Of a stretch of DNA of 37,422 bases, positions 8,881 to 17,017 are shown piece after piece (position 1 is the stretch's first letter; every line of letters begins with the position of its first letter). The notes below the pieces were generated by a model, which made no database searches, was not told the origin of the DNA, and saw only the letters and a program-made list of their open reading frames with translations. The translations under genes and the position numbers were made by a program. This DNA is from Dehalococcoidia bacterium (lineage in GTDB: Bacteria > Chloroflexota > Dehalococcoidia > Dehalococcoidales > G020351185), in assembly GCA_020351185.1 (NCBI GenBank), contig CP070729.1, positions 986,915-1,024,336 of the forward strand, in the 5' to 3' direction.

Positions 8881-9891
8881 ATGCACCGGGCGATGCTCCA
8901 TGAGAGCCTGCTGCAATCTAGAATACGCTGCAATATCTGCCAGTGGCGCTGCCAGATTGGTAAGGGCAAGGGTGGCGTTTGCAAGATGTACCGCAATATA
9001 GAGGGCATCCTGTATAACATGAATTACGCCCAAGTTTCTTCAGTCGCCATTGATCCTATTGAAAAGAAGCCTCTCTTTCATTTCTTTCCAGGTAGTTTGG
9101 CTTTTTCTATCGGTGGTTGGGGCTGTAATTTCCACTGTCAGGGTTGCCAGAATTGGCAGATATCATGTGTTGATATTCCGCAGCATGGACGACGGATTGA
9201 ACCCGAAGAAACTGTAAAGCTGACGAAGGAATACGACTGCCAAGGTATTGCTTGGACATATAATGAACCTACCATGTGGTTTGAATATACACTTGACTCC
9301 GCGCGACTGGCAAAAGAAAGCAATCTTTATACCGTCTATGTTACCAATGGCTATATGACGCCGCAGGCATTAGATACCATAGGTCCCTATTTGGATGCTT
9401 GGCGAGTGGATGTAAAGGGTTTCAGTGATAACCTTTATCGCAAACTGGCGGGGATAAACCACTGGCGCGGTATCCTTGAAGTTGCTATCAGAGCTAAAAA
9501 AAAATGGCAGATGCACATAGAGGTTATTACGAATATCATACCGGGTATGAATGATGACAAAACACAACTTGAAGGTATAGCTGACTGGATTTATGATAAA
9601 CTGGGAGAGCTCACTCCTTGGCACGTAACCCGCTTCTACCCCCATCATGAAATGGCAGACTCACCACCTACCCCAATATCCACGTTGGAGCGTGCCATTG
9701 ATATCGGTAGGAATGCCGGACTTAAATTCGTTTATCTGGGTAACGTGCCAGGGCATGGGGGAGAAAATACGACCTGCTATAACTGTGGTAATGTCATCGT
9801 TAAGAGGTACGGTTATCACGCAGAGGTAGTAGGTGTAAGAGGTTCTCAATGTAAGTTCTGCCGAGCAGAACTTAATATCAAAAAACTTTAG
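8881..9891 (+). CDS. AmmeMemoRadiSam system radical SAM enzyme
   Basis: 336 aa. N-terminal Cys cluster CNICQWRCQIGKGKGGVCKMYRN, DPIEKKPLFHFFPGS, the radical SAM motif CNFHCQGCQNWQIS, and the C-terminal CYNCG...CKFC. Confidence 0.85.
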   Translation: MHRAMLHESLLQSRIRCNICQWRCQIGKGKGGVCKMYRNIEGILYNMNYAQVSSVAIDPIEKKPLFHFFPGSLAFSIGGWGCNFHCQGCQNWQISCVDIPQHGRRIEPEETVKLTKEYDCQGIAWTYNEPTMWFEYTLDSARLAKESNLYTVYVTNGYMTPQALDTIGPYLDAWRVDVKGFSDNLYRKLAGINHWRGILEVAIRAKKKWQMHIEVITNIIPGMNDDKTQLEGIADWIYDKLGELTPWHVTRFYPHHEMADSPPTPISTLERAIDIGRNAGLKFVYLGNVPGHGGENTTCYNCGNVIVKRYGYHAEVVGVRGSQCKFCRAELNIKKL

Positions 9892-9894
9892 GGG

Positions 9895-11220
9895 GTGGTT
9901 ACTATGATAAGAGAAGCGGTAGTGGCGGGCAGGTTCTATCCAGCTTCACCGATTGAGCTCAGGGAAATGATAGCCAGTATGATTGATCAAATGGCGACAA
10001 AAGAAGATGTAATTGGGCTGGTATCGCCTCATGCTGGTTATATCTATTCTGGGCCTGTAACTGGTGCGACGATTTCTCGTGTCAGAATGAGAGATACCTT
10101 TATTATTCTAGGTCCAAACCACACGGGAATGGGTAAAGCTTTCAGTATTATGACCCAGGGTTTTTGGCGTACACCACTGGGTGATGTAGAGATAGATTCA
10201 GAGTTTGCTGGAAACATTGCAGCATTATCAAGCTATTTGGAAAAAGACAGTGATGCCCACCGCTACGAGCATTCCATAGAGGTTCAACTGCCTTTTCTGC
10301 AGTATTTAAAAAAAAATATTAAGTTCGTGCCGATTGTACTAGCCCAGGCTGACGGTACTGTATATAAGGAGATCGGGGAGGCAATAGCTGGAGCTGTAAA
10401 GAAAATAAAGAGAGAAGTTATCATTATAGCTTCCAGCGATATGACACACTACGAATCGCAGACTTCAGCAAAGGAGAAGGATAACCGAGCAATAGAAGCT
10501 ATGCTAGCGCTTAACGAGGATGAATTGATGGAGAAGGTTGAGAGATTAAAAATTTCAATGTGTGGCTATGCCCCCGTGATAAGCCTTATAACAGCCACAA
10601 AAGCACTGGGAGCGGACAAAGCCGAACTGGTAAGATACCAGACTAGTGGTGATACCACCGGCGATTATAGTTCCGTTGTCGGTTATGCTGGTTTAATATT
10701 TAAAAACTACAAGATGTCACCGATTGCGAAATTAGCAAAGGAGGCGGTGGAGACCTTTGTCAAGGATGGCAATATCATATCACCACCGGCTAAACCTACC
10801 ACCGAAATGAAAAAGAAAGCCGGGGTTTTTGTATCAATACATAAATTTGGCCAGTTGCGAGGCTGCATTGGTACTTTTGAGCCAGCACAGGAGGATATCG
10901 CTCGGGAAATAATAGCCAATGCCATTAGTTCAGCTACACGAGATCCCCGTTTTCCAACGATTACCACCAGTGAATTAGGTGATTTAAGATACAGTGTGGA
11001 TGTGTTGACAAAACCTGCGCCAGTGAAGGATAAAAATAGACTGAATCCAAAAAAGCACGGTGTGATAGTGGAGGGTAATTTGAGAAGAGGTTTATTACTG
11101 CCGGACCTGGAGGGAGTAGACACTGTCGAAAAACAGATTGATATCTGCTGCCAGAAAGCTGGTATAGATCCTGATGAGCCGGTGAATCTGTATTGTTTCT
11201 CGGTGAAGAGGTTTAAATAA
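9895..11220 (+). CDS. Fused Memo-like (AmmeMemoRadiSam protein B) / AMMECR1 (protein A) protein
   Basis: 441 aa. The N-terminal half has VAGRFYP, SPHAGYIYSG and LGPNHTG (Memo). The C-terminal roughly 170 aa has GVFVSIHKFGQLRGCIGTFEP and RDPRFP (AMMECR1). The start could be GTG 9895 or ATG 9904; the latter lies 8 nt after GGGGG. Confidence 0.85.
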   Translation: MVTMIREAVVAGRFYPASPIELREMIASMIDQMATKEDVIGLVSPHAGYIYSGPVTGATISRVRMRDTFIILGPNHTGMGKAFSIMTQGFWRTPLGDVEIDSEFAGNIAALSSYLEKDSDAHRYEHSIEVQLPFLQYLKKNIKFVPIVLAQADGTVYKEIGEAIAGAVKKIKREVIIIASSDMTHYESQTSAKEKDNRAIEAMLALNEDELMEKVERLKISMCGYAPVISLITATKALGADKAELVRYQTSGDTTGDYSSVVGYAGLIFKNYKMSPIAKLAKEAVETFVKDGNIISPPAKPTTEMKKKAGVFVSIHKFGQLRGCIGTFEPAQEDIAREIIANAISSATRDPRFPTITTSELGDLRYSVDVLTKPAPVKDKNRLNPKKHGVIVEGNLRRGLLLPDLEGVDTVEKQIDICCQKAGIDPDEPVNLYCFSVKRFK

Positions 11221-12627: not shown

Positions 12628-12657
12628 TTGACACCCCTTCCTGCCGGTGTTTATACT
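12628..12657 (+). promoter_or_regulatory. Putative sigma-70-type promoter for the tRNA gene
   Basis: TTGACA at 12628-12633, a 17-18 nt spacer, then TTATACT at 12651-12657. About 20 nt upstream of the mature tRNA 5' end. Confidence 0.5.
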
Positions 12658-12675: not shown

Positions 12676-12750
12676 CGCGGGGTGGAGCAGTGGAAGCTCG
12701 TCGGGCTCATAACCCGAAGGTCGTTGGTTCGAATCCAACCCCCGCTACCA
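12676..12750 (+). tRNA. tRNA-Met (CAT), initiator type, CCA encoded
   Basis: Hand-folded cloverleaf: acceptor CGCGGGG/CCCCGCT, D-stem GAGC/GCTC, anticodon arm TCGGG-CTCATAA-CCCGA, variable loop AGGTC, T-arm GTTGG-TTCGAAT-CCAAC, then ACCA. Initiator hallmarks are three G:C pairs closing the anticodon stem, A11:U24, and an unpaired 1:72 position (C1/U72). Near-identical in layout to E. coli tRNA-fMet as I recall it. Confidence 0.9.
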
Positions 12751-12764
12751 ATTATTGACGTCAT

Positions 12765-12784
12765 GAGGCGAAAGCCTCTTTTTT
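12765..12784 (+). terminator. Short terminator hairpin after the tRNA
   Basis: GAGGC-GAAA-GCCTC followed by TTTTTT (12779-12784). Confidence 0.5.
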
Positions 12785-12793
12785 ATTAGCGGT

Positions 12794-13006
12794 ATGAAAA
12801 TCATCTGTTACTGTTACAAATACACCGAAGCTGATATCAAAGACGATTTATTGAAAAACAATGGGCGTTCATCTATCCTGGAGCAGATAGTCGAAGAGGC
12901 GAGGAACAAGACGTGCCAGTGTGACATCTACCACCCCGAAAAAAGATGATGCCTTGAGGATATCCGCCGTGTAGTGGACAAATATAAAAAGAGTAAAAGG
13001 TTTTAA
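12794..13006 (+). CDS. Small Cys-rich BFD-like ([2Fe-2S]-type) protein with in-frame TGA; candidate selenoprotein (or recent nonsense pseudogene)
   Basis: Not in the ORF track. ATG at 12794. Translation: MKIICYCYKYTEADIKDDLLKNNGRSSILEQIVEEARNKTCQCDIYHPEKR-TGA(12947-12949)-CLEDIRRVVDKYKKSKRF-TAA. CxC...CxC...(U)C layout. The frame stays open and sensible for 18 codons after the TGA. Confidence 0.55.
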
Positions 13007-13007
13007 T

Positions 13008-13048
13008 GAAGGTCGTTAATTCGAATCAAACCCCCACTATTAATTATT
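13008..13048 (+). repeat. Degenerate copy 1 of the tRNA-fMet 3' end (att-like remnant)
   Basis: gaaggtcgttaattcgaatcaaacccccactattaattatt compared with tRNA 12716-12756 gaaggtcgttggttcgaatccaacccccgctaccaattatt. 35 of 41 positions are identical by manual alignment, including 6 nt 3' of the CCA. Confidence 0.75.
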
Positions 13049-13058
13049 TGAAAGTGGA

Positions 13059-13088
13059 ACACAGGTGAGAGAACCTGTGTCTTTTATT
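13059..13088 (+). terminator. Terminator-like hairpin following repeat copy 1
   Basis: ACACAGGT-GAGAGA-ACCTGTGT (8-bp stem) followed by CTTTTATT. Lies between the convergent genes ending at 13006 (+) and 13090 (-). Confidence 0.6.
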
Positions 13089-13089
13089 A

Positions 13090-13554
13090 CTAGAAGCATC
13101 CCAGCTGGCATCCGCTAATTTTGAGACCCTGAACGCTTGCTTCATTTGCAATAGTAATTGGTTTTAGCTTAAATTCTTGACCTAGTTCAAATATTTTTGT
13201 ACATGTAAGCTGATTGCTTTCTGCTAATGTCATAAGCATTGTAACAATTTCACCATCTAGACATTTATTTGCTGGATTATCATAAGTAGTCTTCTCTTTC
13301 TTGTAAAAACCAATCTGGCAATCGGTTATCCGGATACCTAATTTATCAGCAATTTCTCCTACGGCAATTTTAGTAACCCTCGCTTCCTTTGCTATATCCC
13401 ATGCAACGGGACAAGAAATATACCCATCTCCTAATGCAGCCTTAACCATGGATTCTAAATGGGCAAGCTCTTCTTTCGAGAGGTTGTCGGGGTTATTTGG
13501 TATTTGGATTCTTGCACTCTTTTTTACTCTACTGGCATCATTAAAATCTCTCAT
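13090..13554 (-). CDS. Hypothetical protein with two tandem Cys-bracketed HTH-like modules
   Basis: 154 aa. AGGAG lies 5 nt upstream of the ATG. Internal duplication: ISCPVAWDIAKEARVTKIAVGEIADKLGIRITDCQIGFY and LTCTKIFELGQEFKLKPITIANEASVQGLKISGCQLGCF. I do not recognise the family. Confidence 0.6.
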   Translation of the reverse strand: MRDFNDASRVKKSARIQIPNNPDNLSKEELAHLESMVKAALGDGYISCPVAWDIAKEARVTKIAVGEIADKLGIRITDCQIGFYKKEKTTYDNPANKCLDGEIVTMLMTLAESNQLTCTKIFELGQEFKLKPITIANEASVQGLKISGCQLGCF

Positions 13555-13663
13555 AATAACTCCTACAATTTATATAATAAGATTATATTACATAGCTAAT
13601 TAAATTGTATTTCATCAAGTGTATATAAGACTTTCTCGCTACAGGAAACAGCCTAGTAGTATT

Positions 13664-13696
13664 GTTGGTTCGAATCAAACCCACGCTACAAATTAT
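13664..13696 (+). repeat. Degenerate copy 2 of the tRNA-fMet 3' end
   Basis: gttggttcgaatcaaacccacgctacaaattat compared with tRNA 12723-12755. 30 of 33 identical by manual alignment. Followed by a hairpin plus T-run at about 13709-13739. Confidence 0.75.
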
Positions 13697-13762
13697 AGAA
13701 GTTGAGATCGCAGGTCTAGAGGCCTGTGTTATTTTTTTATCCAATATTTTAGGAAACCAAGA

Positions 13763-14290
13763 TTAGTACTTCTGCCATCCCATACCTTGTATTAAACCCC
13801 GTATATAAGACATCTGACCTGCATGCAAGAGACTGTCTTCTAAAACACTTATGATACGTACACCCACAGTCGGTAGCGGTTGAAACCAGGGTTCGTTAAG
13901 CTCTTTATCTAAGTCAGATTTAGATAAGGTTGTAAAGTATTTCATTGAGCGCCCCGAAACCGCTTTTTGGTAATCAAGCAAAATTTGTATATCTGGTGAT
14001 GTAAAATCTTTTAATTGTTCCGTATTATGACCAAATCCGATATCCCCTGGATCAGCTGGCCGGTTAAACCTTGTATACCATTTGTCTTTAATCCATAGTT
14101 GTTCCACTCCTATTAAAGAAGAAATTTGGGCATCCTGTTGACGTGTGAGATGCCAGGCAAGCCAACCTATACTATTGCTATCATCCTGAGGTTGCCAGTT
14201 GAGGTCATCATGTTTTAATCCTGTCAGAGTATGTTTCATGAATTCGTAAATTCGTGAGTAACCATCCTCGATTAAACCTTGCCACTCCAT
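13763..14290 (-). CDS. DinB-family protein
   Basis: 175 aa. Four-helix-bundle DinB pattern: L.GL..DDLNWQP....NSIGWLAWHLTR..D, and a C-terminal HAGQMSYIRGL. Confidence 0.75.
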   Translation of the reverse strand: MEWQGLIEDGYSRIYEFMKHTLTGLKHDDLNWQPQDDSNSIGWLAWHLTRQQDAQISSLIGVEQLWIKDKWYTRFNRPADPGDIGFGHNTEQLKDFTSPDIQILLDYQKAVSGRSMKYFTTLSKSDLDKELNEPWFQPLPTVGVRIISVLEDSLLHAGQMSYIRGLIQGMGWQKY

Positions 14291-14410
14291 ACGGTACCTT
14301 CCTTCGCATAAAAATATCGCTACAAAGAGTAGTGTGAACAGTTAAAATGATTGAACCTTGTGGATTCTTTTTACCATAGAGCTTACTTGAACCTCGGCTG
14401 CTAAACTTAA

Positions 14411-14438
14411 TTGGTTAGAATTCAATCCTCGGCACCAA
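14411..14438 (+). repeat. Possible third, most diverged copy of the tRNA 3' end
   Basis: ttggttagaattcaatcctcggcaccaa compared with ttggttcgaatccaacccccgctaccaa. Weaker similarity may extend upstream to about 14392 (tcggctgctaaactta versus tcgggctcataacccga). Confidence 0.4.
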
Positions 14439-14468
14439 AAGGATTACTTAGGATGATATCCAGAAACA

Positions 14469-14987
14469 TCATTGTTTAAAGATGCCTTCATTAGAGAATT
14501 TCTTGTTGCCCCTAAGGAAAACTATTGAGAAACGACCACCTTGTCTAAGCTTAGAAATCGCAATTTCAAAGTCAGATGCATTAGCAATATTCTGCATGTT
14601 TAATTCTGTAATAATATCATGAGGTTTCAAGCCTGTTCTTTGAGCGGTTGAATCTGGTTTAACACTACCGATGTATGCACCAAACACGGTACCTATTCCT
14701 TGTTGAGTAGTTATTTTACTAGCATCTGTTATAGAAACACCAAAAGAGATCTTTTGCTTTTGGTTGAGGGCTTTTTTCAATTTTACTTGATCGAAGCCAA
14801 CGATTGTTTGATCATTGATTATGGTAACCGGCACTCCCATTTTACCGGTTCTATTGATAAGTTCTCTTGCTGCGCAAGGATCGGCAGAAACATCACGTTT
14901 AGTGTAATCTATTTTTTGTTGCGAAAGGAAATCTTCCACCATATTACAGTAGGGTCATGTGGGGCTTGTGAAAATGGTTACATCCAA
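14469..14987 (-). CDS. Glutaredoxin-like (UPYC) - PDZ fusion protein with in-frame TGA; candidate selenoprotein
   Basis: The track ORF (14469-14942) starts after the active site. The same frame extends upstream to TTG 14987-14985, 8 nt after AGGAG (15000-14996). Translation: (M)DVTIFTSPT-TGA(14957-14955)-PYCNMVEDFLSQQKIDYTKRDV...GVPVTIINDQTIVGFD. The TGA sits exactly at the first Cys of the CPYC glutaredoxin motif. The C-terminal half has a PDZ-like pattern (GAYIGSVKPDSTAQRTGLKPHDIITELNMQNI...FSIVFLRGNKKF). Confidence 0.65.
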
Positions 14988-15235
14988 TTAAGTAACTCCT
15001 GCGTTATTTTTTAATAAAAGTATATTATAAAACTTGAACAAAAGATACATCGATAAGTATTTGCCATTATTGGATGAATAAAACCAGAAGTTCTAGGTTT
15101 ACCGCTAAACCGAGATCACTTTTTCGGATGATACTACAGATTAATACCATATGATCGATGTGATTTAAGTCATATACAATCAGCCATAAACTTAATAAAA
15201 TAATGTTAAGTTAAAAAAAGAAAGGAGACGTTGTT

Positions 15236-15724
15236 ATGAGCTTAATTATAAGAAGAAATGGTGGAGAGAGAGCTTTGGTACCGTTATTTAGTGCGCCGAG
15301 TGTGCTTGAGGAATTTGATGCACTTGCAAGGAAAACTTGGGATTACTGGCCATTTTCAACGATTGAAAATGTAATGCCAACGATTGATGTTTATGAGGAG
15401 AAAGGCGAGCTAGTAGTAAAGGCGGAATTACCTGGTATCAGTAAGGAGGACTTGGATGTAACCCTTGAGGGTGATAAGCTAACCATAAAAGCCGAGAAGC
15501 AGGAAGAGATAGCTGAGGAAACTACCCTACACAAACGCGAGCGCTATTATGGGCAGTATTTCCGTTCCGTTACACTACCTTATCCGGTTTTGGAAAATGG
15601 AATATCGGCTACAATGGAAAATGGTGTTCTTGAATTAAGGTTTACCAAGGCTGAAGAGGCGAGGGCTAAAAAGATCGAAATTAAGGGTCAGTTAACAAAA
15701 GGAAAAAAGAGAGCTAAGAAGTAA
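15236..15724 (+). CDS. Hsp20/alpha-crystallin small heat-shock protein
   Basis: 162 aa. AAAGGAGA RBS. Alpha-crystallin domain PTIDVYEEKGELVVKAELPGISKEDLDVTLEGDKLTIKAEK...ENGVLELRF. Confidence 0.9.
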   Translation: MSLIIRRNGGERALVPLFSAPSVLEEFDALARKTWDYWPFSTIENVMPTIDVYEEKGELVVKAELPGISKEDLDVTLEGDKLTIKAEKQEEIAEETTLHKRERYYGQYFRSVTLPYPVLENGISATMENGVLELRFTKAEEARAKKIEIKGQLTKGKKRAKK

Positions 15725-15747
15725 GGTTGAATAATTGGGAGATTGCC

Positions 15748-15780
15748 AAAGGCTGGGTTTCGGCCCAGCCTTTTGATTTC
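15748..15780 (+). terminator. Rho-independent terminator after hsp20
   Basis: AAAGGCTGGG-TTTCGG-CCCAGCCTTT followed by TGATTT. Confidence 0.7.
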
Positions 15781-15980
15781 CGAATATATATTGATGTCCT
15801 GTAACATTCTCACGAGGAATGTAAAATTTGTAGATATGGGGATAGTTTATCCGAGACGAATAATTATCGAAAACGATAAAGCGAAATCACAGAAAAATGT
15901 GATTTCTATTACATCCGTAAATGCATATCAATATTATATTACTTTAATATAGTTTATATATATTAACAGGAGTCAGGGTA

Positions 15981-16160
15981 ATGCCTTTATATGAGTATAG
16001 TTGTAATAAATGCGATCATATATTTGAAAAATTTAAAGAAACTGGTAGTAGTGCTGCAAGCGTAGTATGTCCAAAGTATGGTGTAAAGAATTCAAAGCGG
16101 ATTTATTCAATATTCAACAGCTTAAGTCAAAATTACATTCCACGGTTTAGTGGTGGTTGA
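15981..16160 (+). CDS. FmdB-family zinc-ribbon protein with a degenerate second Cys pair
   Basis: Not in the track (59 aa). AGGAG lies 9 nt upstream. MPLYEYSCNKCDHIFE...VVCPKYG. The family consensus is MP.YEY.C..C...FE....CP.CG; here the last Cys is Tyr (TAT). Confidence 0.6.
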   Translation: MPLYEYSCNKCDHIFEKFKETGSSAASVVCPKYGVKNSKRIYSIFNSLSQNYIPRFSGG

Positions 16161-16356
16161 GGGTTATAAAAATGAGGCAGTTTGCTTCGAATGCTAAGTC
16201 TATGAGTGGAAATTACTTCTATGAATGGAGTAGTCTTTATCGACAGGAATATGTGTTGGAATTAATAACGATTACAATATCGAGAAATAAATAGCTAATG
16301 AAGTCATACAAGAGGCAATAAGATTCAGTTGAGCACCAGCTTTATCAACGATGTAA

Positions 16357-16542
16357 TGGATAAGTTATTATCCATTGATGATATTAATAATCGGGCTATG
16401 TTTGATGGTTATGGAATATTCTACGAAGAGGTTTTGTTTGCTATAATCATGAAGGAGATGCTTTTTTAAAATGAATGAAACAAATCTAACATGTATGAAG
16501 AAGCTACGAGCAGAAGATTTCAACATGGTATATCGTACTAGG
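16357..16542 (+). pseudogene. Decayed TfoX/Sxy N-terminal-domain gene
   Basis: One frame reads MDKLLSIDDINNRAMFDGYGIFYEEVLFAIIMKEMLF-TAA-NE-TGA-NKSNMYEEATSRRFQHGISY-TAG. This matches the TfoX_N pattern (..MFGGYG.FY.G..FA.I....L.FK....N...YEEAGS..F) but has three in-frame stops. Confidence 0.55.
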
Positions 16543-16687
16543 AAGTATCAGCAAAAATTCTAGGCGACGGGAATCGATTGAGTAAGTGAGCTGAAATATC
16601 ATTAGATATAGCAGCAAGAAAAGCCATTAAAAACCGATGATAGCAAAACCAAATTACTAGTATATTATTACACATCATTAAAGTGTT

Positions 16688-17017
16688 ATGAGTAAAAATA
16701 ATCCTAGGCTTTTCCGTGAGGGCAAAACCATTGAGGTAATGATAGCTATTTATTGTCGGAAAAACCATTTTACTGACCCATTATGCCAACAATGTGAAGA
16801 ACTCCTAAAGTATGCCCACAAAATGCTTGATAGATGTCCTTTTGGTGAGAACAAAACTACCTGTGTAAAATGTCCGATACATTGCTATAAACCCCAGGCA
16901 AGACAAAAGATAAGAGAGGTAATGCGTTATTCTGGACCGCGAATGATATATCGCCATCCGTTAATAGCAATACGACATCTTGTAGACGGGTGGAGAACAA
17001 AGACAATTAAGAATTAA
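16688..17017 (+). CDS. Nitrous-oxide-stimulated promoter (YgbA-like) family protein
   Basis: 109 aa. Cys pattern C..C......C.F...K..C..C..HCYKP..R..IREVMRYSGPRM...HP, typical of this family. Confidence 0.75.
   Translation: MSKNNPRLFREGKTIEVMIAIYCRKNHFTDPLCQQCEELLKYAHKMLDRCPFGENKTTCVKCPIHCYKPQARQKIREVMRYSGPRMIYRHPLIAIRHLVDGWRTKTIKN

Follow-up and report, generated by a model that had tools for sequence, protein, structure and literature searches.

A predicted 70-residue selenoprotein with a stand-alone BFD-like [2Fe-2S] domain, encoded behind a tRNA-Met gene in a Dehalococcoidia genome

The reading frame, its in-frame TGA and its relatives

The DNA analysed here, referred to as the window, is a stretch of 37,422 nucleotides from the genome of a Dehalococcoidia bacterium (assembly GCA_020351185.1, contig CP070729.1, positions 986,915 to 1,024,336 of the forward strand). 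Our subject is a short open reading frame (ORF) on the plus strand of the window, at positions 12794-13006, which we interpret as the gene of a small selenoprotein. The ORF is complete and consists of 51 codons, TGA, TGC, 17 further codons and TAA, with the translation MKIICYCYKYTEADIKDDLLKNNGRSSILEQIVEEARNKTCQCDIYHPEKR-TGA-CLEDIRRVVDKYKKSKRF-TAA; the product has 70 residues if the in-frame TGA at 12947-12949 is read as selenocysteine (Sec, U52). The adjoining Cys codon TGC occupies 12950-12952. The cysteines are arranged as CxC...CxC (C5, C7, C41 and C43), followed by the dyad U52-C53, and these six invariant residues are all present in the window copy. Directly upstream lies a tRNA-Met (CAT) gene at 12676-12750 on the same strand, the 3' end of which is repeated further downstream as an att-like sequence. 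Between the tRNA gene and the ORF there is a short GAAA-loop hairpin (12765-12778) with a T-run, together terminator-like and extending over 12765-12788, and the ORF starts 8 nt past this T-run. A strong promoter-like site, TTGACA-18-TATACT with 11 of 12 matching positions, is found upstream of the tRNA gene at 12628-12657, also on the plus strand. A preliminary description of this DNA had pointed to a 70-codon ORF missing from the gene track, situated directly after the tRNA terminator, with a CxC...CxC layout and a TGA immediately before a Cys codon, and all of these statements agree with our reading of the locus. In the protein collection that we searched, the 51 N-terminal residues had no exact counterpart, although other proteins of the window do occur in it, and this fits a gene left unannotated in its genome. 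With Rfam at gathering thresholds, only tRNA was matched in the window.

The first protein search gave five relatives, of which four were called as proteins ending in ...P[EQ]KR, and one, P0001, had W at the position of the TGA. These and further relatives supplied the DNA loci for a set of 22 copies, the window included, originating from genome and metagenome collections. In all 22 copies the TGA occupied the same codon and the next codon was TGC or TGT, and the frame continued past it with the motif C[LI]xDV[RH][RQ]VV for 12-24 codons. Homologs ending at the equivalent of residue 51 had been raised beforehand as an objection to selenocysteine; such proteins are found, but only as gene calls, and the DNA of every copy continues in frame. 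The closest TGA copies, with 60-66% identity, came from Dehalococcoidia metagenome-assembled genomes (MAGs), and others from Syntrophaceae, Thermodesulfovibrionales, Desulfobacterales and Desulfobulbaceae, including one from an isolate, Desulfopila sp. IMCC35006. The TGA copies thereby span at least four lineages, including Dehalococcoidia, Desulfobacterota, Syntrophaceae and Thermodesulfovibrionales.

Synonymous changes were seen on either side of the TGA in the codon table of the homologous loci. When the window was compared with its three closest relatives, the proportion of synonymous differences (pS) upstream of the TGA was 0.53-0.65 and that of nonsynonymous differences (pN) 0.07, and the 13 codons downstream gave a pS of 0.37-0.71 and a pN of 0.06-0.10. 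For the ORF, the ratio of nonsynonymous to synonymous substitution rates (dN/dS) against the same relatives was 0.05-0.08. Conservation of the frame, together with a pN well below the pS after the TGA, indicates that this stretch is translated and under purifying selection. The 18 codons noted earlier as remaining open behind the TGA are thus conserved at the protein level, with synonymous change between copies.

When 1.84 billion representative proteins were searched with a profile, 303 relatives were recovered at E <= 0.001, and the following counts rest on the 155 proteins that were retrieved from these. Short forms ending exactly at the Sec column were the most numerous (78 of 155), while nine short forms had W-C, where the gene caller reads TGA as Trp. 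Another 21 short forms and 22 long forms (approximately 140-175 residues) carried C-C, and a few proteins had R, S or Y at the Sec column. The expectation that homologs should carry Cys at the TGA column was accordingly confirmed in 43 Cys-form representatives. The stand-alone form of the protein is, as far as can be read from these sequences, mostly a Sec form with genuine Cys counterparts. Residues C5, C7, G24, S26, C41, C43, P48, C53 and V61 were invariant across the aligned short forms, and C5, C7, C41, C43 and P48 remained so once the long forms were added to the alignment.

The hairpin downstream of the TGA and a second TGA-containing gene

Inside the coding region, at 12963-12978 on the plus strand, we found a small hairpin of the type known as the bacterial selenocysteine insertion sequence (SECIS). 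Its stem is formed by UCCGC (12963-12967) and GUGGA (12974-12978), and its loop, CGUGUA (12968-12973), starts 18 nt after the UGA. A hairpin with a G/U-containing loop at a SECIS-compatible distance from the TGA had been proposed in the preliminary description; its existence and its distance were confirmed, while the register of the conserved stem differs slightly from the one first drawn. Every copy in the DNA set had the hairpin, with the stem (G/A)UCCGC/GUGGA(C/U) and a loop of either CGUGUN or AGGU, the stem being 5 bp long in the window copy and 6-7 bp in the homologs. RNAalifold, applied to 18 aligned sequences, predicted exactly the 6-bp stem with 106 of 108 cells paired. A compensatory change from C-G to U-A was present in two copies (L015 and L017), and every one-sided change kept the pairing. 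Since the stem overlaps the conserved residues VRRVVD, pairing was compared with that obtained by resampling of synonymous codons: in the 22 sequences 130 of 132 stem cells were paired, against 86±3.4 expected, with a maximum of 98 in 2000 trials. The three fourfold-degenerate sites in the stem were near-fixed (C in 20 of 22, C in 21 of 22 and G in 22 of 22), and the two such sites of the loop varied freely. The hairpin is under selection at the RNA level.

According to the published model of bacterial SECIS elements, the loop has 3-9 nt with a G in its first two positions, the stem has 4-16 bp, the distance from UGA to loop is 16-37 nt and the minimum free energy (MFE) is at most -7.5 kcal/mol (PMC13188914). 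The hairpin described here fits this model with a loop of 6 nt, G and U at loop positions 2 and 3, and a spacing of 18 nt, and the hairpins of the homologs had MFE values from -7.6 to -24.7 kcal/mol. A lower SECIS stem in a fixed register was considered and dropped, as 4 of 12 pairs covaried and many cells were unpaired. Individual folds gave a lower stem in most sequences, in shifting registers, and it is the upper stem alone that we claim.

The DNA of two Cys forms, both reading TGC-TGC, served as a control for the hairpin, a comparison limited to these two sequences. One of them (L023, 1001-1213) still had a strong hairpin at the SECIS position, which may mean a recent conversion from Sec to Cys, and in the other (L024, 1001-1240) the hairpin was degraded.

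Four lines of evidence support the decoding of the TGA as selenocysteine, as the preliminary description had suggested. These are the conserved TGA itself (TGA-TGY in 22 of 22 DNA copies), its pairing with Cys in the Cys-form representatives, the constraint on translation downstream of it, and the constraint on the RNA hairpin.

A second TGA at a Cys position, said to lie in a UPYC gene 2 kb away, was also located. It belongs to a predicted glutaredoxin-PDZ selenoprotein gene at 14469-14987 on the minus strand, with the active site T-U-P-Y-C and the TGA at 14955-14957, annotated only from an internal ATG at 14942. The minus strand reads TTG GAT GTA ACC ATT TTC ACA AGC CCC ACA TGA CCC TAC TGT AAT ATG, and the product (M)DVTIFTSPT-U-PYCNM runs into the glutaredoxin-PDZ frame that is open from ATG 14942. 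As called from this ATG the protein has 157 amino acids, and its true N-terminus lies upstream, across the TGA. Cys forms of the protein read MDVVVYTSPTCPYCNMV. Its homologs fell into two groups, full-length proteins of 170-173 residues that contain TSPTCPYC and proteins of 155-158 residues called from the internal Met; both kinds occur in Chloroflexota, the short calls in large number. The TGA falls on the catalytic Cys of CPYC, 2 kb from our ORF, and a scan of the window for further ORFs with a TGA at a Cys position gave the glutaredoxin gene only. We regard it as independent, indirect support for the predicted Sec decoding in this genome. Dehalococcoidia MAGs have been reported with 46-49 predicted selenoprotein genes (PMC13326102).

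Domain type, family and competing explanations

Two NCBIfam models matched the ORF. The model CopZ_Nterm_CC (NF047645) gave an E-value of 4.8e-12 and 46.3 bits, against a cutoff of 100, over positions 86-137 of 138; CopZ_Nterm_CU (NF045877, Csac_0668 family 2Fe-2S cluster-binding (seleno)protein) gave 1.9e-6 and 27.9 bits, against a cutoff of 190, over positions 98-158 of 161. Membership in either family was rejected. For NF047645, the grounds were the low score, the match restricted to the C-terminal positions and the absence of the zinc domain zf_CopZ, an extra N-terminal domain seen in the long homologs alone. For NF045877, besides the score, the ORF has no N-terminal domain and its Sec comes first in the dyad (U-C) rather than second (C-U). 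A named family of small [2Fe-2S]-binding (seleno)proteins with both Cys and Sec forms had been mentioned in the preliminary description; the superfamily was right, the sub-family NF045877 was not.

The Pfam domain Fer2_BFD (PF04324) matched 50 of 77 family members at E < 0.01. A profile of the family matched the N-terminal domain of Archaeoglobus fulgidus CopZ (PDB 2HU9) with E = 5e-8, and residues 73-123 of that structure aligned with the ORF, CYC and CC included, in such a way that C75/C77 correspond to C5/C7, C109 to C41 or C43, and C118/C119 to U52/C53. A search of the PDB with the single sequence gave nothing meaningful, and 2HU9 was reached by profiles alone. An AlphaFold2 model of a Cys-form homolog, P0010 (pLDDT 97.7, pTM 0.85), consisted of four helices and a short strand, with the last of the helices beginning at the U/C-C dyad, and its best matches in the PDB were to Pseudomonas aeruginosa Bfd, with TM-scores of 0.50-0.62. 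These results bear out the BFD-like fold suggested earlier, and the ORF is predicted to encode a BFD-like [2Fe-2S] domain that stands alone and is related to the C-terminal half of the N-domain of A. fulgidus CopZ.

The ORF differs from each of these relatives in several respects. The CopZ N-domain carries Zn in addition to a [2Fe-2S] cluster, whereas the ORF has neither the zf_CopZ zinc subdomain nor the fused CXXC copper-chaperone domain of the archaeal protein; it has CxC where the latter has a single Cys, and Sec takes the place of C118. The proteins of NF045877 and NF047645, for which Sec and Cys forms both exist, share a homologous Cys-rich C-terminal domain with the ORF, but they are approximately 140-160 residues long with an N-terminal zinc domain, and the ORF covers only the last 55-60 positions or so. 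Bfd (Fer2_BFD; PDB 4E6K and 6E6R) is a small, wholly helical [2Fe-2S] domain with CxC near its N-terminus, as is predicted for the ORF. Its second ligand pair is CxxC, whereas the corresponding motif in the family of the ORF is CxC-x8-(U/C)C; no Sec form of Bfd is known, and nothing ties the ORF to bacterioferritin.

A predicted selenoprotein has been catalogued as "(2Fe-2S)-binding protein, CopZ family, form 1 (GxUC)", beside a form 2 that corresponds to the Csac_0668 family with the motif CU (PMC13188914; PMC9312934). The ORF matches form 1 in its domain type (CopZ-like, Fer2_BFD-like) and in the U-C order, with Sec as the first residue of the dyad, a predicted assignment made by comparison with the description of that family (reference protein WP_245779778.1). 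Many homologs read G-[RK]-U-C, while the window copy reads K-R-U-C, with Lys replacing Gly. The family was not named in the main text of the cited GOS and ISME papers. The gene adds a new, hitherto unannotated member to a catalogued family of predicted selenoproteins, and it does not represent a new kind of system. We know of no experimental work on form 1.

Taken as a whole, the evidence makes it highly probable that 12794-13006 is a genuine and functional gene for a 70-residue selenoprotein with a stand-alone BFD-like [2Fe-2S] domain. A number of observations weigh against this conclusion. Firstly, neither a promoter of its own nor a Shine-Dalgarno sequence was found in the sequence upstream of the ORF, which moreover sits between two terminator-like hairpins. 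Secondly, the SECIS-type hairpin of the window is the weakest of the set. It has only 5 bp, with an A·C mismatch where the stem begins; folded by itself it reaches -5.3 kcal/mol, and within its surroundings -7.0 to -8.1, which is borderline for a limit of -7.5; and shuffling of the window sequence alone gave z-values from -0.3 to -1.5, which are not significant, so that the support for the hairpin comes from the 22 homologous sequences. Thirdly, the window sequence scored 16.9 bits with Fer2_BFD, below the gathering threshold of 26, and the Foldseek E-value of the match between the P0010 model and Bfd was weak (1.6). The assignment of the cluster ligands given below rests on the alignment with 2HU9, in which C75, C77, C109 and C119 reportedly bind the cluster. 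The few homologs with R, S or Y at the Sec column suggest that Sec is perhaps not essential, or they are errors in the entries; unless they are errors, they fit a residue that is no obligatory ligand. Finally, none of selA, selB, selC and selD was present among the ten ORFs of the window that were scanned, and tRNA-Met was the sole tRNA found in the window.

Much of the same evidence would suit another explanation, namely that the family is real and the window copy a silent or decaying relic, not expressed, in an integration scar beside tRNA-Met. The ORF without its own promoter or Shine-Dalgarno sequence, its place between terminator-like hairpins, the degenerate tRNA-Met 3' repeats that flank it and the mismatched SECIS stem with the weakest folding energy of the set are all what such a relic might display. 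We nevertheless consider it very unlikely, since the ORF is intact, keeps all invariant residues and has a low dN/dS against its three closest relatives, and since the arrangement of tRNA fragment, GAAA-loop hairpin with T-run, and ORF is also kept in three of the homologous loci (L005, L006 and L018).

Marginally less probable again is that the TGA is a true stop, ending a peptide of 51 residues, and that the conservation behind it belongs to an RNA element such as a stabilising or regulatory hairpin at the 3' end. Gene callers do end half of the retrieved proteins (78 of 155) at this codon, the truncated product would retain C5, C7, C41 and C43, and a hairpin under RNA-level selection does follow just downstream. 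An RNA element of this kind is hard to reconcile with a frame that continues over 12-24 codons in each of the 22 loci although synonymous divergence is close to saturation, and with a pN far under pS; in addition, the Cys-form homologs read through with CC and the identical C[LI]xDVRRVV helix, and C53 is invariant across the aligned short forms. That a standard amino acid (Trp, Gly or Cys) is inserted at the UGA, by way of an alternative code or near-cognate suppression, is hardly credible: nine database entries do carry W at the TGA, but TGA is the ordinary stop of 4 of the 24 long frames of the window, the in-frame TGAs of both genes fall exactly on functional Cys residues of their homologs, and selection acts on a SECIS-type hairpin that has the right distance from the UGA.

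Surroundings of the gene and proposed role

The ORF is part of an array of partial tRNA-Met copies. The source of the repeat is the 3' end of the tRNA-Met gene itself (12718-12756, plus strand). A degenerate copy with 6 mismatches in 39 positions lies at 13010-13048 on the plus strand, 3 nt past the stop of the ORF, and has its own terminator at 13059-13080; a second degenerate copy, with 8 mismatches in 39, lies at 13659-13697 on the same strand and is followed by a terminator at 13709-13728. A possible fourth and more degenerate copy was seen near 14411-14438. Each clear repeat has its own downstream terminator hairpin, and no match of such quality was obtained in 20 shuffles. The repeats bound what look like single-gene modules, which contain the ORF described here, a 154-aa ORF, and an ORF resembling DinB/mycothiol transferases, and the glutaredoxin-PDZ selenoprotein gene follows. 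The 154-aa ORF (13090-13554, minus strand), situated between two of the repeats, contains Cys residues and has GCQLGCF in its C-terminal part; it had no match in Pfam or PHROGs, and its NCBIfam matches were insignificant (E >= 0.039). None of the ORFs of the island had a match in PHROGs. The GC content drops from 0.46 to 0.35-0.38 over 13000-17000, with flanks of 0.42-0.46. The drop begins at the first tRNA-Met repeat and fits foreign or island DNA, and other features of the region are Hsp20, a small Cys-rich ORF (16688-17017) and several further ORFs that matched no family.

Between the window and its closest relatives (L004, L005, L006 and L018), homology was limited to a module of approximately 270-315 bp, in which a tRNA 3' fragment is followed by a GNRA hairpin with its T-run and then by the ORF, while the flanks otherwise differed. 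In four of five contigs the module ended at another tRNA-like 3' fragment, or about 20 nt before one. No synteny beyond the module was found between the window and any homologous locus, and there is consequently no conserved operon partner from which to infer a function. In two of the relatives (L005, 171-312, and L018, 520-650) the tRNA-Met 3' fragment upstream of the ORF was not part of a tRNA gene, and a terminator hairpin as well as a -10-like element (TGTTATAAT in L005) lay ahead of it. From this promoter-like context, the tRNA-like fragment may be transcribed there as a 5' leader of the selenoprotein mRNA.

The array looks like the outcome of repeated site-specific integration at tRNA-Met, or of a cassette-like system, that left single-gene modules behind. 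No integrase was seen in the modules. A more specific version, in which the gene is the sole cargo of a cassette of approximately 290 bp (an att copy of the tRNA-Met 3' end, the hairpin and the ORF, with the stop codon as its boundary) moved in trans by an integrase, is doubtful in our opinion. If true, it would mean a tRNA-targeted, integron-like spread of selenoprotein genes with an internal SECIS among Dehalococcoidia. In another part of the window, at 8881-11220 on the plus strand, a radical-SAM ORF (8881-9891) precedes an ORF (9895-11220) in which MEMO-like and AMMECR1-like parts are fused, an arrangement that, from reading of the sequence, resembles the AmmeMemoRadiSam system.

Regarding expression of the predicted selenoprotein in this genome, the promoter-like site at 12628-12657 is the only good candidate for the ORF, and its use would require read-through of the tRNA terminator. 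Given this strong site before the tRNA, and since neither a promoter nor a Shine-Dalgarno sequence belonging to the ORF itself was found, the simplest guess is that the ORF and tRNA-Met are transcribed together, and read-through from the tRNA-Met promoter would be the most likely route. In the mRNA, UGA-52 would be decoded as selenocysteine by SelB and tRNA-Sec, with the small in-frame hairpin (stem 12963-12967/12974-12978, loop CGUGUA 18 nt after the UGA) as the probable decoding signal.

Homology with Bfd and with the [2Fe-2S] subdomain in the N-domain of A. fulgidus CopZ suggests that the protein binds one [2Fe-2S] cluster. Its likely ligands would be C5, C7, one Cys of C41-x-C43, and C53, which would place Sec-52 beside the last ligand, where the C-terminal helix begins. 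Sec-52 and the spare Cys of the CxC pair would then make up a selenol/thiol site, reactive and coupled to the cluster, which could carry out redox chemistry or bind a soft metal; a less likely alternative is that Sec-52 is itself a direct selenolate ligand of the cluster. The Fe-S domain of A. fulgidus CopZ mediates the reduction of Cu(II) (PMC7558416), and the protein described here would likewise be a small electron-transfer or metallochaperone-type protein.

For this genome, our reading corrects two annotations, a missing 70-residue selenoprotein and a glutaredoxin-PDZ selenoprotein truncated at its N-terminus. For the family, it reveals a systematic blind spot of annotation: in the library of 1.8 billion proteins most of the stand-alone members are stored as fragments of 51-55 residues cut at the Sec codon, and neither of the matching NCBIfam models scores the ORF above its cutoff. 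No new principle is involved, since lists of predicted selenoproteins already include the family. It does place a selenol right beside a predicted [2Fe-2S] ligand within 70 residues, and would thus be a compact system for the role of Sec near an Fe-S cluster.

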